A DNA stretch of 64,000 bases from a bacterium (GTDB lineage: Bacteria; Bacillota_I; Bacilli_A; RF39; UBA660): positions 9,672-73,671 of the forward strand of contig JAQXPH010000033.1 of the NCBI GenBank assembly GCA_029100545.1, in the 5' to 3' direction. The position numbers were made by a program, and so were the translations under genes. The notes under the pieces were generated by a model. That model was given only the letters and a program-made list of their open reading frames with translations. It was not told the DNA's origin and did no database searches. Shown one piece after another: positions 10,421-46,073 of this stretch (within the stretch, counting starts at the first letter, position 1; each line of letters begins with the position of its first letter).

Positions 10421-12055
10421 ATGTGTAAAATTAAAATTTTTGGTTTGGGTGGTTTAAACGAAAATGGTAAAAACTGCTATGTTGTTGAAGTAAACAATGA
10501 TATTTTTGTATTTGATTGTGGTCTTAAATATGCTACAGGAAATTTACTTGGAATTGATTATATTATTCCGGATTTTTCTTATTTAGAAAAAAATGTTAAA
10601 AGAATTAAAGGAGTATTTATTACTCATGGTCATCAAGAAAATATGGGAAGTGTTGCAGATTTAGTAGAACATATTCCAAATATTAAAATTTATGCTACTA
10701 AATTTACTAAGTATACTTTAATTGAAGATGGTGTTCCTGAAAAAAATATTATAGAAATTAAAGTTCATAAAAAAATTACTTTTGGAGAAAATTCAATATT
10801 TCCAATTGCAATTTCTCATAGCGTTCCTGATGCAGTTATGTATGTACTTTATACAAAAGATGGTAGTATTTGTTATACTGGTGATTTTACAATTGACCCA
10901 AGTATGATGGGTAGTTATGAAATGGATTTAGGAAAAATTGCTTATGTTGGAAAACAAGGTGTTTTATGCTTATTAAGTGAATCTATTTTTTCTGAAAATC
11001 CAGGACATACTTCTCCAAAACATAAATTGATTGATTTTTTTAAAGATGTAATTAAACATAATGAAAAAAGAATAATATTTAGTGTATTACCAGATCATTT
11101 ATATACAATTGAAGAAATATTTAATGCATGTGCAAATACACATCGTAAAATTGTTGTAATGGGTAAAAAATTACAAAATATTATTACTTATTCAATAGAA
11201 AATAATTATTTAAATGTAGAGGATGGTATTATTGGAGATTTATCTAATTTAAAAGATGAAAATGTAATTATTTTAATTAGTGATGATAGAGCAAATCCAT
11301 ATGCAAATATTAATAAAATATTTACAGGTTATGATAAATTTGTTAATTTACTTCCTACTGATACAATAGTTTTTGCACAACCTAAATATGATAGTAGTGA
11401 AAAATTATTTGTTAAAATGGAAAATGAACTTGCTAAATTTGGTTGTAATGTAATAGATATTCCAAAGAAATATTCAATTTTACAACATGCTTCAAAAGAA
11501 GATTTAATGCTTATGATAAAACTTGTAAATCCAATGTATTATATGCCAGTAAAAGGCGATTATAGATATATGGTAGGTAATGCTAATGTGGCAAGTTCAT
11601 TAGGTATACCTGCTGAAAATATTATTCTTAAACAAAATGGTGATGTAGTAAATATTACTGATAAAAAAATCGAAGATAAATTTGAACATATTAATGTTGA
11701 TGATATATTTATTGATGGTAAAAGTTCTGATGATATAGGTGATCTTGTAATAAAAGATAGAGAAGTTTTAGCAGAAAATGGTATTGTTTTAATAAGTGCA
11801 ACTGTATCTAAAAAAGATAAAGTTTTGTTAGTAGGTCCAGAAATAGTTACAAGAGGTTTTATTTATGTAAAAGATTCTAAAGAAATGATTGAAGAAATTA
11901 AAAAAATATGTGAAAAAGTTATTAATGATAATATAACTCCTAAATATGTTGATTATAATTTAATAAGACAACAAATTAGAGAAGATTTGGGAAGATATTT
12001 ATATGAAGAAACTGAATGTAAGCCTATGATAATTGCTGTAGTTCAAGAAGTATAA
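10421..12055 (+). CDS. rnj: ribonuclease J (RNase J2-like, variant metal motif)
   Basis: KIFGLGGLNENGKNCYVVE, metallo-beta-lactamase/beta-CASP layout and conserved C-terminal domain. Motif II reads HGHQEN instead of HxHxDH. Confidence 0.88.
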   Translation: MCKIKIFGLGGLNENGKNCYVVEVNNDIFVFDCGLKYATGNLLGIDYIIPDFSYLEKNVKRIKGVFITHGHQENMGSVADLVEHIPNIKIYATKFTKYTLIEDGVPEKNIIEIKVHKKITFGENSIFPIAISHSVPDAVMYVLYTKDGSICYTGDFTIDPSMMGSYEMDLGKIAYVGKQGVLCLLSESIFSENPGHTSPKHKLIDFFKDVIKHNEKRIIFSVLPDHLYTIEEIFNACANTHRKIVVMGKKLQNIITYSIENNYLNVEDGIIGDLSNLKDENVIILISDDRANPYANINKIFTGYDKFVNLLPTDTIVFAQPKYDSSEKLFVKMENELAKFGCNVIDIPKKYSILQHASKEDLMLMIKLVNPMYYMPVKGDYRYMVGNANVASSLGIPAENIILKQNGDVVNITDKKIEDKFEHINVDDIFIDGKSSDDIGDLVIKDREVLAENGIVLISATVSKKDKVLLVGPEIVTRGFIYVKDSKEMIEEIKKICEKVINDNITPKYVDYNLIRQQIREDLGRYLYEETECKPMIIAVVQEV

Positions 12056-13700: not shown

Positions 13701-14390
13701 ATGGAAAAGAAAAATACTTTATTGTTAACTGTTATAGCAGTAGCTACATTATTAGTAGCAGTAGTAGGTGCGACATTCGCATACTTCGGTTCATTTACAA
13801 CTACTGTTGATAACAAAGCAGCAGTAAACGTTGCAACTGAGGCTGCTAAATCATCAACATTTTCTACATCATCTGCATCACTTAAATTAAATGTAGCTGG
13901 ATCAGAAATGCTTAAAGGTACTGGCTCTGCAACTCAAGTTGGTTCATATACTGGAGATAATGCTAATTTAATAGTATCATTAGAAGCAAATGACCAAACA
14001 ACTACAACTACTTGTACATATGATGTTTATTTTGTTTATGATGAAGGATCAGCAGTATATGGTAATGATCCAACTCCAGTAACAGCTGGAACTGATAATA
14101 AAGAATTTACTTACACATTAAAATCTGATGCTGCTGGTTTAGTAGTTGATCCTACATATATAGCTGAAACTGAAAAAGATTTCTCAGTATTTAAAACTGC
14201 TACAACTGCAGTTAAAGTAGCTTCAGGAACAATTGCTGCAAGTAATACTACTACAACTCAAACACTTACTGCAAAAGTTATGTTCTATAATTTCCCAACA
14301 ATCGATCAAACTGCACTATCTGATAAGACTTATGGCGGTAAATTCTATGTTGAACAATCTACTGTAGTTTGTGGTACAACAGCTGTATAG
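13701..14390 (+). CDS. secreted fibre-subunit candidate P2 (TasA/CalY-type signal peptide, novel body)
   Basis: MEKKNTLLLTVIAVATLLVAVVGATFAYFGSF. The mature part is T/S/A/V-rich with two Cys (C105, C224) and motifs CTYDV and FYNFPTIDQTAL..GKFYV. It has a strong SD, its own terminator and C-ending codons. Confidence 0.7.
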   Translation: MEKKNTLLLTVIAVATLLVAVVGATFAYFGSFTTTVDNKAAVNVATEAAKSSTFSTSSASLKLNVAGSEMLKGTGSATQVGSYTGDNANLIVSLEANDQTTTTTCTYDVYFVYDEGSAVYGNDPTPVTAGTDNKEFTYTLKSDAAGLVVDPTYIAETEKDFSVFKTATTAVKVASGTIAASNTTTTQTLTAKVMFYNFPTIDQTALSDKTYGGKFYVEQSTVVCGTTAV

Positions 14391-14543: not shown

Positions 14544-15245
14544 ATGGAAAAGAAAAATAGTTTATTTTTAACAATTGTGGCTGTTGCAGTTTTACTAGCT
14601 GCAGTAGTGGGAGCAACATTTGCATACTTTGGTTCATTTACAACTACAGTAACTAATCGAGCTGCGGTAAATGTTACAACAGCTGAGGCAAAATCATCTT
14701 CATTTATATCAACAGCAGCTGCACTTTCATTAAGTGTATCAAGTTCAGAAATGCTAAAAGGTACAGGTAGTGCAACTTCAGTTGGAACTTATGCAGGAGG
14801 AAATTCAAACGCTACTTTAACAGCAAGTTTAACTGCAACTGATTCAACAACAACCACAACATGTACATATGATGTAATGTTTGCTTATGATAGTACTTCT
14901 GCAATTTATGGTAGTGCAACAACTCCAGTAACATCTGGAACAAATAACCAAGAATTTGTTTATACAATAACTTCATCTGCTCCAACATCTTTAGTTATTC
15001 AAAATTCATATAAAAATGCAAATAGTGATTTTTCAACATTTAAGACAGCTACTAATGAAACAAATGCTATTAAAGTTGCAAGTGGTACAATTTCTGCAAA
15101 AAATACTACTACAACTCAAACACTATCAGTAAATGTTAAATTTTATAATTTCCCAACAATTGATCAAACTGCCCTTGCAAGTAAAACATTTTCTGGAAAA
15201 TTTTATGTAAATTCAACATCTGTAGTTTGTAATACAACTGCTTAA
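14544..15245 (+). CDS. secreted fibre-subunit candidate P3 (tandem paralogue of P2)
   Basis: The first ~35 aa are almost identical to P2 (VVGATFAYFGSFTTTV). Same CTYDV and FYNFPTIDQTAL..GKFYV motifs, with Cys107 and Cys229. Confidence 0.7.
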   Translation: MEKKNSLFLTIVAVAVLLAAVVGATFAYFGSFTTTVTNRAAVNVTTAEAKSSSFISTAAALSLSVSSSEMLKGTGSATSVGTYAGGNSNATLTASLTATDSTTTTTCTYDVMFAYDSTSAIYGSATTPVTSGTNNQEFVYTITSSAPTSLVIQNSYKNANSDFSTFKTATNETNAIKVASGTISAKNTTTTQTLSVNVKFYNFPTIDQTALASKTFSGKFYVNSTSVVCNTTA

Positions 15246-43581: not shown

Positions 43582-45813
43582 ATGGAAAATAAAAAAAATA
43601 AATTAGATAAAAAAAGTATTTCAATTATTATAATAGTAGCAATTTTTCTAGTTATTATAATGGCAATAACTTTTGCTTATTTTGGTAATTTTTTTGTAAA
43701 TCTTGGTAATATGTTAAATGTTAATTTATCTGCTGGAGAATTATCAAATGCTTATTTAAATGCAACAAATACATCATTTTCTATTGATATTGATCCTGAA
43801 AATATGAGTGAAGATAATGCAGGTAATTTTGTTATAACTAATGAGTCTAGTTTAAATGTATTTTTAGATGCAGGTACAACTAGTTTTGGAGTTAAATGTA
43901 CTTATGATATTATGTTTGAATATGATAGTACTTCAAGTATTTATGGTAAAGAGCCAACTCCAGTAAGTGATGGAGCAACAAAAGAATTTACTTTACAAGC
44001 AAGTGGACCAACTACTTTTTCTAATTTTTTTAAAGAAGAAACAAATTTTGCTTATGATAGTAATTGGAGTTCTAATCCATATAGAAGAACTATTGCAAGT
44101 AATGTAGAAATTATAAATACAAGTTCAAATAATCCTATAGTTCAAACATGGATTTTTACAAATAAATTTTATAATTTAGATTTAGATCAAACAGCTCTTG
44201 CTAATAAAAAATTTAAAGGTAGATTTTATGTAGATAATACTCATTGTGAAACTACCCAAATTGCTAATGATAGTGAAACTTTATATGCATTAGTACAAAA
44301 TAAATATAATGAAGGAAATACTTTTGTAAAACTTTATGATGGAGAAGGATCTGATTCCTATGCTAATCCAGTATACTATTATAATGGCGCAGTACAAGAT
44401 AATAATGTTTATTTTGCGGACCTATGCTGGAAAATGGTTAGAACTACCGATACTGGAGGAGTTAAATTAATTTATAATGGAACGCCAAAAACAATTACCA
44501 AACCAATACCTATAGAAGAATCACAGTATCTAAATGTATCGAATGATGCAAACTACCCATATACATTTGATAGTACTAATAAAACATGGACAAGTACTAA
44601 TAAAACTAATAGTGCCACCGGTACAATAACATTTACTGTAGCAGAAGCAGGTGATTATTTTCTATCATATACCGTTTCTTCAGAGGCAAATTGGGATAAA
44701 GCAATATTTTATAAAGATGGTACAACGCTTGGTACTTACAGTGGTGAAGCAAGTGGAAGCATTACTCTAGATGGTCTTACAACCTCAAATGTAATAAAAG
44801 TAGAGTATACAAAAGATTCATCGGGAGCAATTGGTAGTGATAATGTAGTCTTTAGTTTGGATAAACCCTCTGGTAATTCATATTTAACATGTAATAATAC
44901 TGGAACTGATTCTCAAATAGGAACAAGTTCATTTAATGGTAGTTATGATTCTCTAGCATATGTAGGTTATATGTATAATACAGAGTATACTTCTTCATCT
45001 AAAACAAGATCACAATTATCTAATATAGTATTTGGTAATTCATTTACATATTCAGGTGGCACGTATACACTTGCTGATACAATGACAGTAGCAACTTGGT
45101 CAAGTGGTTATAATACAATAAATAATAATCATTATACGTGTTTTACTACGGGTACTACTTGTCCGTCTTTATATTATGTACATTATGCTGATTCTTCAAA
45201 TGCATATTATATAACGCTTACGGGTGGTAAATCAGTAAGCGATGCTTTAAATGAAATGTTATATGTAGGTGATGTAAATAAAACTAATTCAATAATAAAA
45301 ACATATATAGAAACATGGTATGAAAATAATATGACAGCATATACATCATCTCTAGAAGATACAACTTATTGTAATGACCGAAGTATAATAAATTTAAATG
45401 GCTGGAATCCAAATGGAGGAAGTACAACTGGTTATTTACAATTTAAAAATTATAATGATAATTATAGTTTAGTATGTGGTAGTGTTACAGATCAATTTAG
45501 AGTAGGAAATACAAAAGCACCACTTAAATATCCAGTAGGTTTACTTACAGCCCCAGAAGTATTGCTAGCTTATAAAGATGCAAATTATAGCACATATTAT
45601 TTAAATACAGAACAGATTTATTGGCTTGGGTCCCCTAGCTACTTCATCAACAAAAACAGCAATGCTTACGTGCGTCTCGTCAGTAGTTCGGGCAACCTGA
45701 GTAACAACTACGTGAACGATTCTATCGGGGTCCGCCCGTCCGTTTCCTTAAAACCTGGCACCGAATATATTTCAGGAAATGGGTCATATACTTCACCATT
45801 TTTGATAGAATAG
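43582..45813 (+). CDS. large family member P5: TasA/CalY-type leader, P2/P3-like module and ~520-aa adhesin-like extension ending in a lectin-like domain
   Basis: The leader ends IIMAITFAYFGNF. It shares VKCTYDIMFEYDSTSSIYGKEPTPVS and FYNLDLDQTALANKKFKGRFYVDNTHC with P2/P3. The extension contains YYYNGAVQDNNVYFADLCWKMVRT and ends YWLGSPS...SIGVRPSVSLKPG..GNGSYTSPFLIE. Confidence 0.7.
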   Translation: MENKKNKLDKKSISIIIIVAIFLVIIMAITFAYFGNFFVNLGNMLNVNLSAGELSNAYLNATNTSFSIDIDPENMSEDNAGNFVITNESSLNVFLDAGTTSFGVKCTYDIMFEYDSTSSIYGKEPTPVSDGATKEFTLQASGPTTFSNFFKEETNFAYDSNWSSNPYRRTIASNVEIINTSSNNPIVQTWIFTNKFYNLDLDQTALANKKFKGRFYVDNTHCETTQIANDSETLYALVQNKYNEGNTFVKLYDGEGSDSYANPVYYYNGAVQDNNVYFADLCWKMVRTTDTGGVKLIYNGTPKTITKPIPIEESQYLNVSNDANYPYTFDSTNKTWTSTNKTNSATGTITFTVAEAGDYFLSYTVSSEANWDKAIFYKDGTTLGTYSGEASGSITLDGLTTSNVIKVEYTKDSSGAIGSDNVVFSLDKPSGNSYLTCNNTGTDSQIGTSSFNGSYDSLAYVGYMYNTEYTSSSKTRSQLSNIVFGNSFTYSGGTYTLADTMTVATWSSGYNTINNNHYTCFTTGTTCPSLYYVHYADSSNAYYITLTGGKSVSDALNEMLYVGDVNKTNSIIKTYIETWYENNMTAYTSSLEDTTYCNDRSIINLNGWNPNGGSTTGYLQFKNYNDNYSLVCGSVTDQFRVGNTKAPLKYPVGLLTAPEVLLAYKDANYSTYYLNTEQIYWLGSPSYFINKNSNAYVRLVSSSGNLSNNYVNDSIGVRPSVSLKPGTEYISGNGSYTSPFLIE

Positions 45814-45856
45814 GGAATGAAGAAAAGTAGGTGCCACCACCTTTACACTAGAAAGT

Positions 45857-45880
45857 CCTCGCGAAAACCCTTTCGCGAGG
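45857..45880. other. GC-rich perfect hairpin (10-bp stem, 4-nt loop) downstream of P5
   Basis: CCTCGCGAAA-ACCC-TTTCGCGAGG. No T-run follows on either strand, so it is not a typical terminator for this genome. Confidence 0.8.
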
Positions 45881-46073
45881 CGCCGAAGTAAAAAAATTAA
45901 CGCTAAGATAAATAAGAGGGATAAAATCACCGTAAAAAAAGTGAAAAAAATCAACAAAAAAAAGTGTGAATAACATCAATGCAAAAAAAGATAGACATAT
46001 CTTTTTTTTAGTGTTAAAATAAATATGACATTTTAAGTGGGCTTGCAATCCCACTTTTATTATTAAATAGGAA

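Follow-up and report, generated by a model that had tools for sequence, protein, structure and literature searches.

The diversity-generating retroelement (DGR) of the Bordetella phage BPP-1 consists of mtd, an initiation of mutagenic homing (IMH) element, a hairpin or cruciform, a template repeat (TR), avd and the reverse transcriptase (RT) gene brt. Its variable region (VR) lies at the 3′ end of a receptor-binding-type gene and ends in a GC-rich tract, its TR is rich in AAC, and the changes between the two repeats are adenine-specific. The target hairpin of this system has a GC-rich stem of 7-10 bp and a 4-nt loop of the form GRNA, is found 4-34 bp after the VR, and relies on its structure more than on the sequence of its stem (PMC3240598). 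Here we analyze a stretch of 64,000 nt from a bacterium of the RF39 group (the window, to which all coordinates refer unless a locus label precedes them), in which the gene P5 ends in a GC-rich island. On balance, we favor the view that positions 45622-45748 are the VR of a DGR target gene, and that P5 belongs to a set of several dispersed targets on which a core of TR, avd and RT acts in trans; this core would either lie elsewhere in the genome or have been lost only recently.

Loci from related genomes, labeled L001 onwards (L001 is a strain of the same species), allow P5 and its family to be compared with described systems. With the BPP-1 element the family shares the VR at the 3′ end of a receptor-binding-type gene, the AAC-rich TR, the adenine-specific changes, the GC-rich tract that ends the VR, an Avd-like open reading frame (ORF) with an RT, and a downstream hairpin (hairpin 1) with a conserved 4-nt loop and a free stem sequence (PMC3240598). 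Unlike in BPP-1, the order is target-TR-avd-RT, all on one strand; the loop of the hairpin is ACCC instead of GRNA, and the hairpin lies about 108 nt past the VR, after the stop codon, instead of 4-34 nt; the RT, of about 490 aa, has a C-terminal MutS_I-like extension; and the targets are chromosomal and multiple, with the donor half absent from the window.

Chromosomal DGRs of the Treponema denticola type, or Lineage 4 of Wu et al. 2018 (PMC5758913), are likewise not phage-associated. In them, as here, a single TR supplies several paralogous targets scattered over the genome, some of which are on other contigs or at distances above 100 kb (in the present family, L021 and L027 relative to the TR of L010, and L003 relative to that of L002). 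They differ in having an HRDC accessory gene where this family has avd, and an FGE-sulfatase target domain where this one is DUF6273-like; moreover, some genomes of the family carry a TR beside the target with no RT within 10 kb. The same 2018 survey noted three related RTs with a C-terminal MutS_I motif (PMC5758913). Like them, the RTs of the present family combine RVT_1 with a weak MutS_I match in a C-terminal extension, but the family is large, with 1291 homologs at E ≤ 1e-20. Lastly, DUF6273 (PF19789) domains occur in DGR targets of gut phages (tentaclins, Faecalibacterium prophages; PMC10743442, PMC11792537), where they have been reported to be C-type-lectin-like (PMC10743442). P5, in contrast, scores below the Pfam threshold and is a membrane-anchored cellular protein of 743 aa.

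The GC-rich 3′ end of P5

P5 was assigned from the ORF list and its translation (43582-45813, forward strand). The protein has a membrane anchor at its N-terminus and a conserved C-terminal module of about 510 aa, with the variable region at the end of that module. It is 100% identical to PUD07_05110, an NCBI protein from a metagenome-assembled genome (MAG), and has more than 2500 homologs, including at least four paralogs in the same MAG (PUD07_04125, 04230, 05550 and 05765). The VR comprises 127 nt of the forward strand, from the Trp681 codon to ...CCGTTTCC (45622-45748), i.e., aa 681-722 of 743, at the 3′ end of the ORF. An original prediction, made from the letters of the window alone, had placed the start of a GC-rich island at the first base of this codon. 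That position is correct within the ORF and proves to be the exact start of TR/VR homology in relatives, with whose boundaries those of the VR coincide.

The composition of the island is as had been described, that is, roughly half G+C: 51.4% for 45622-45765 (52% for the VR), versus 24.0% for the whole window. When GC content was computed in sliding 144-nt segments over the 64 kb (mean 24.0%, standard deviation 6.4%), the maximum fell at 45620, with z ~4.3. The reported departure from the local codon dialect is evident at the synonymous level, the G+C fraction at third codon positions (GC3) being 0.71 in the 42 codons of 45622-45747, versus 0.09 in the rest of P5. Direct reading also bears out the runs of AAC, AAT, AGC and AGT codons, and the GC tract GGGGTCCGCCCGTCCG at 45727-45742 (forward strand). 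This tract has G or C at 15 of its 16 bases and stands in an IMH-like position at the 3′ end of the VR; by position and composition it would qualify as a GC-rich IMH of the BPP-1 type. A homologous tract closes both TR and VR in relatives (GGCGTGCGTCCGGCA in L030, GGGGCCCGGCCTGCA in L084). The VR is followed by a conserved, non-variable tail, SLKPGTEYISGNGSYTSPFLIE plus the stop codon (45749-45813, forward strand), which is nearly invariant among homologs, and the raised GC does continue past the stop codon, to about 45900. The remaining GC peaks of the window were considered as hidden DGR parts and rejected; they sit in FtsZ, RuvB, FtsK and dCMP deaminase and are ordinary.

Such composition is common to the family. 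Across 40 VRs, the mean GC content is 48%, in loci that average 27% (range 23-33%), and thus we conclude that the island is an intrinsic property of the TR/VR module. The TRs have 45-54% GC, with A at about 33% and T at only 12-22%.

Sequence variation is concentrated in the same segment. Between the window and L001, the flanks are 98-100% identical and the VR (45633-45752) only 72-73%. In every homolog, conservation of the protein breaks down only between YWLGSP and G(A/V)RPSVSLKPGT, where the sequence is scrambled, with an abundance of S, G, Y, V and N; variability is thus confined to the stretch that the original prediction had marked. In the species group, 19 of 19 proteins have a unique in-frame VR of this kind between the conserved YWLGSP and GARPSVSLKPGT. 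The VR of L001 matches no sampled paralog, and that of the window has 6 nt (AACAAA) more than the other VRs of its lineage. In a comparison of six lineage VRs (window, L001, L004, L006, L007 and L018), the variable columns were enriched at the adenines of heterologous TRs, namely those of L010 and L083 (odds ratio 5.3-6.5, p ~1e-5 to 9e-5); 29-30 of the 78 non-adenine columns vary as well.

The lectin-like fold proposed for the C-terminal domain was not confirmed. DUF6273 matches aa 673-724 of P5 at 19.6 bits, below the cut-off of 23.5, and one homolog, P0043, carries PF19789. An AlphaFold2 model of aa 520-743 has a predicted local distance difference test score of 70.6; a Foldseek search with this model gave no hit at E ≤ 0.001 in either PDB or BFVD, and in the latter a DUF6273 phage protein ranked first (E 0.2). 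A profile search against PDB likewise gave no match for this domain.

The retroelement in related genomes

A scan of one genome per species yielded 77 loci encoding relatives, labeled uncultured gut Bacilli and similar, and L084-L086 were found via RT homologs. Complete cassettes are present at six loci (L030, L040, L082, L084, L085 and L086), in a fixed order on one strand: a target gene with its VR, the stop codon, hairpin 1, a second hairpin (hairpin 2), an AAC-rich TR, an Avd-like ORF of about 120 aa, and the RT gene. The RTs match RVT_1 above threshold, and their best match of solved structure is the 328-aa chain 8ub7_A (E 3e-21), which we take to be the BPP-1 RT, bRT. Four of them (L030:3934-5412, L040:5762-7234, L082:12039-13508 and L084:6001-7518) end in a stretch weakly similar to MutS_I (PF01624; E 1e-6 to 6e-4). 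The small ORFs of the cassettes have sub-threshold matches to bAvd and DivGenRetAVD.

The changes between TR and VR are of the type expected for a DGR. At L030, 17 differences fall at adenines and none at the 72 non-adenine positions. Likewise, L021 belongs to the same genome as L010 but lies on a different contig, and its VR departs from the TR of L010 at 20 adenines and at none of 76 other positions. The counts are 17 adenine and 4 non-adenine differences at L009, and 19 and 4 for L027 compared with the TR of L010. L003 is a remote target for the TR of L002, 185 kb away on one contig. Because the TR-to-VR differences in these relatives are adenine-specific, we conclude that the DGR family is a working one, and that it has remote targets. 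The original prediction of a remote or orphan DGR target in P5 is supported: the cassettes of relatives share the VR scaffold and its adenine-specific changes, and in L002 and L010 a TR follows the P5 ortholog itself.

Two further elements recur on the donor side. Hairpin 2 (GGATTAAAC...GTTTAATTTAGGATTA) is conserved 5′ of every TR, and a motif (GTTATGGTAAAATT ... GTGAAACAGGT ... TCTATGGA) is conserved between TR and avd (L030:3440-3540, L040:5270-5340, L084:5500-5560, L085:5480-5540 and L086:5490-5545). Both are candidate structural parts of the DGR RNA.

The orthologous locus of P5 has the order sigma factor, DUF5698, target, rimP, nusA. At L002 (12340-12452) and L010 (11697-11810), a full TR follows hairpins 1 and 2 and is itself followed by rimP, with no avd or RT after it. 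Even so, it is from this TR of L010 that the remote VR of L021 differs at adenines only. L056 (~11840-11910) has an internally truncated TR after both hairpins, while in the window, L001, L006 and L090 hairpin 1 alone remains. The loci thus form a decay series, from the full cassette (L030) to the TR only (L002, L010), the truncated TR (L056) and the bare target (window). Where hairpin 2 and the TR lie in relatives, the window has an A-rich spacer (45885-45990, forward strand; delimited by composition and by alignment with L002), with an AT skew of up to 0.47; L001 has a partial deletion of it, and L006 lacks it altogether. That this spacer might be a decayed TR was considered and rejected, since its local alignment to three TRs was no better than that of shuffled sequences (p 0.05-0.3).

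Of the module, the window itself contains only the target side, comprising the VR, its GC tract and hairpin 1, and it lacks the donor side (hairpin 2, TR, avd and RT). As had been stated, there is no second copy of the VR in the 64 kb, either by repeat search or by a scan of both strands that allowed any VR base opposite A. Nor is there an RT in the window: tblastn with three family RTs found nothing, and a hidden Markov model built from 60 family RTs gave a best E of 0.16 against all stop-to-stop frames. Over 6-8 kb beyond each end of the window, reached via identical flanking proteins, we found no TR or RT and housekeeping genes only, and the same two elements were missing from the 10 kb surrounding nine further targets of the lineage. 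The check proposed with the original prediction, for a TR-like copy with mismatches at adenines accompanied by RT and Avd genes, was thus positive in relatives and negative in all of these regions of the window lineage.

A TR pattern specific to the lineage returned a single contig from JGI metagenomes, here L083 (Ga0065708_1056214, 395-1388). On this contig, hairpin 2 is followed by a TR, avd and the beginning of an RT gene; a terminator-like hairpin precedes them, and upstream there is no target gene. In its 5′ half (TGGCTTGGGTCCCCTAACAACTTCAACAACAACAATGCTAACGAGCGTAAC), the TR agrees exactly with the one implied by the six VRs of the window lineage, and a GAG codon in it explains both GGG and GTG in those VRs; the 3′ half differs. 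L083 shows that a TR-avd-RT core may sit apart from its targets. Among the best 120 of the 1291 RT homologs, the closest RT to the L083 fragment has at most 58% identity, and none has a PUD07 name; the L083 Avd, used as a search probe, matched only itself.

There are also signs of exchange between loci. P0040, a target protein of 602 aa, occurs in identical form and with its hairpin at the rimP locus in one pig gut metagenome and at a Metallophos/MscL locus in two others (L090:2223-4031, L091:76-1884), so that target cassettes are apparently exchanged between loci; no TR-avd-RT core adjoins this short paralog at these loci. In P5, the mid-section (44445-45041) has 77-87% identity to L001, whereas identity mostly exceeds 90% over the remainder of the gene and reaches 98-100% in the flanking genes, which suggests a mosaic that may have arisen by recombination among paralogs.

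Hairpin 1

The perfect hairpin CCTCGCGAAA-ACCC-TTTCGCGAGG at 45857-45880 (forward strand) is as originally described, including the lack of a proper T-run; it is followed on the gene strand by GCGCCGAAGTAAAAAAA. Its 10-bp stem has 6 GC pairs, its apex GAAA-ACCC-TTTC is conserved, and it begins 43 nt past the stop codon. The DNA folding energy of the 87 nt around it is -15.7 kcal/mol, versus -6.4 ± 1.9 for shuffled sequences (z -4.8; 0 of 200 as good). In a gapless alignment of 7 distinct copies, compensatory changes occur in 7 of 11 pairs, and 96% of the cells are paired versus 27-46% in slid controls. Searching 1.46 Mb with a covariance model yields 13 strong copies, each of which lies on the gene strand immediately 3′ of the stop codon of a target; four further stems are present in L041, L084, L085 and L086, and two relatives have the loop variants AACC or ACCT. 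The likeness to the BPP-1 hairpin that had been proposed thus holds in part: conservation, covariation, stem length and the 4-nt loop agree, but the loop is ACCC and not GRNA, and the distance from the VR is about 108 nt and not 4-34 nt.

Hairpin 1 is also present beside targets without a TR, namely in the window lineage, at L041 and at the second target of L040, and it is missing upstream of the target-less TR of L083. We therefore regard hairpin 1 as a target-side element, with hairpin 2 belonging to the TR. A conserved loop on a freely covarying stem points to specific recognition, and hairpin 1 is presumably a target-side recognition element, as judged from these patterns of conservation. 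It is conceivable, if rather unlikely, that it defines a distinct class of such elements, one that would let a single TR-avd-RT(MutS_I) core, or a TR separated from its RT as in L002 and L010, rewrite dispersed and recombining surface-protein genes, P5 among them. If true, this would amount to a split, multi-locus DGR organization in small low-GC genomes of gut Bacilli.

Status of the P5 target and its surroundings

Judging from relatives, the 3′ end of a target gene such as P5 would be rewritten as follows. The AAC-rich TR would be transcribed, and a DGR-type RT with its Avd-like partner would reverse-transcribe it, miscopying adenines. The resulting cDNA would replace the homologous VR at the 3′ end of the gene of a surface-anchored protein, and the ligand-binding end of that protein would be altered. 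The VR would be GC-rich as a consequence of being overwritten repeatedly from a TR of 45-54% GC, with A-to-N changes adding G and C, and this overwriting would decouple it from the AT-biased codon usage of the genome. Presumably there is also a selective reason for the TR to be GC-rich. A GC3 of 0.71 in a genome of 24% GC argues for ongoing or recent rewriting, and the DGR may well still be active in the window genome. In favor of activity are the divergence of the VR between strains, the intact frame of the 19 VRs, the many AAC codons that are retained, and the fact that GC3 stays at 0.71 although synonymous sites in this genome are driven toward A and T.

Several observations weigh against a core that is still at work elsewhere in the genome or only lately lost. 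The cognate TR, avd and RT of the lineage were found neither in the window, nor 6-8 kb beyond its ends, nor within 10 kb of the nine other loci, and a search of IMG/VR viral contigs with TR patterns gave no match. The TR of L083 is related to the window lineage but is not its cognate. Loss of the core does happen in this family, since relatives have a TR without avd and RT, or a truncated TR. Among the lineage VRs, the 29-30 variable non-adenine columns count on the same side, and lengths are unequal, with an additional 6 nt in the window. Finally, many remote targets with clean adenine-type changes have no hairpin 1, and the necessity of this element is therefore doubtful.

A less probable but serious alternative is that P5 is an orphaned former target. 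The core would have been lost and the VR would be a relic, with strain differences left by past mutagenesis and by recombination or gene conversion among the target family. The lack of a TR or RT in or near any of about ten lineage loci agrees with this, as do the many variable non-adenine columns, and inter-locus recombination is evident from the identical P0040 at two loci and from the mosaic middle of P5 relative to L001. Loss of the core is further favored by the decay series and by the damage to hairpin 1 in L006 and L018. On the other hand, in a genome of 24% GC the VR has retained a GC3 of 0.71 and many intact AAC codons. Each of the 19 VRs in the group is unique and has kept its reading frame, and that of L001, which matches no sampled paralog, is not explained by simple exchange among known copies. 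In addition, standalone TR-avd-RT cores exist in the family (L083), and the part of the genome inspected is only a fraction of it. We therefore consider a core located elsewhere, or recently lost, to be likelier than an orphaned target.

Two explanations that involve no retroelement have little to recommend them. The original prediction had offered, as its other option, a patch acquired by recombination from a donor of higher GC, and the sharp compositional boundaries and a GC content twice that of the genome are what such a patch would produce. However, the same GC-rich scaffold recurs in all 40 VRs of the AT-rich loci described above, the boundaries of the island are those of TR/VR homology, and the flanking protein sequence is continuous with the family; a donor patch is thus unsupported, and we judge it extremely improbable. 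Scarcely more credible is that the island reflects an overlapping structured RNA or ordinary protein constraint, with the hairpin serving as a terminator of the gene. In AT-rich genomes, GC islands often mark RNA genes; hairpin 1 is very stable, and a terminator scan flags it weakly. Yet this flag is on the minus strand only and has a poor tail, there is no T-run on the gene strand as an intrinsic terminator would have, and relatives that lack hairpin 1 use canonical T-run terminators. The window has no Rfam or tRNA match, the stretch is the least conserved part of the protein, and the conserved loop and covarying stems speak for recognition instead.

The locus illustrates how, in a very AT-rich genome, a DGR target can be recognized from a jump in synonymous GC at the 3′ end of a gene, even if its retroelement is distant or unassembled; annotation that starts from the RT would miss such targets. 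The family to which it belongs is large and little described (more than 1000 RT homologs and more than 2500 target homologs) and resides in uncultured gut Bacilli. It has a new conserved, non-canonical hairpin, a fixed order of modules, RTs with a MutS_I-like extension, and TRs separated from RTs, and its loci display a series of decay and dispersal from the full cassette, through TR only and truncated TR, to the bare target. In the organism of the window, the analysis identifies a multigene family of hypervariable surface proteins, which probably mediate contact with the host, phage or neighboring cells.

In the window, P5 is preceded by genes for a sortase, a sigma factor and a DUF5698/DUF2179 protein, and is followed by rimP, nusA, ylxR, a deaminase gene and infB (rimP and nusA by Pfam). 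Directly before rimP (46074), a scan detected a promoter-like site, TAGACA-17-TAAAAT, followed by a terminator-like hairpin with a T-run (45992-46056, forward strand). This pair is kept in L001, L002, L006 and L090; it is part of the rimP-nusA-infB operon and not of the DGR module, and may be a leader or attenuator for that operon.

Elsewhere in the window, two tandem paralogous ORFs (13701-14390 and 14544-15245) encode 229 and 233 aa and have 71-73% DNA identity to each other. Neither has a Pfam match, and both resemble the N-terminal part of P5 (43896-43978 and 44185-44235).

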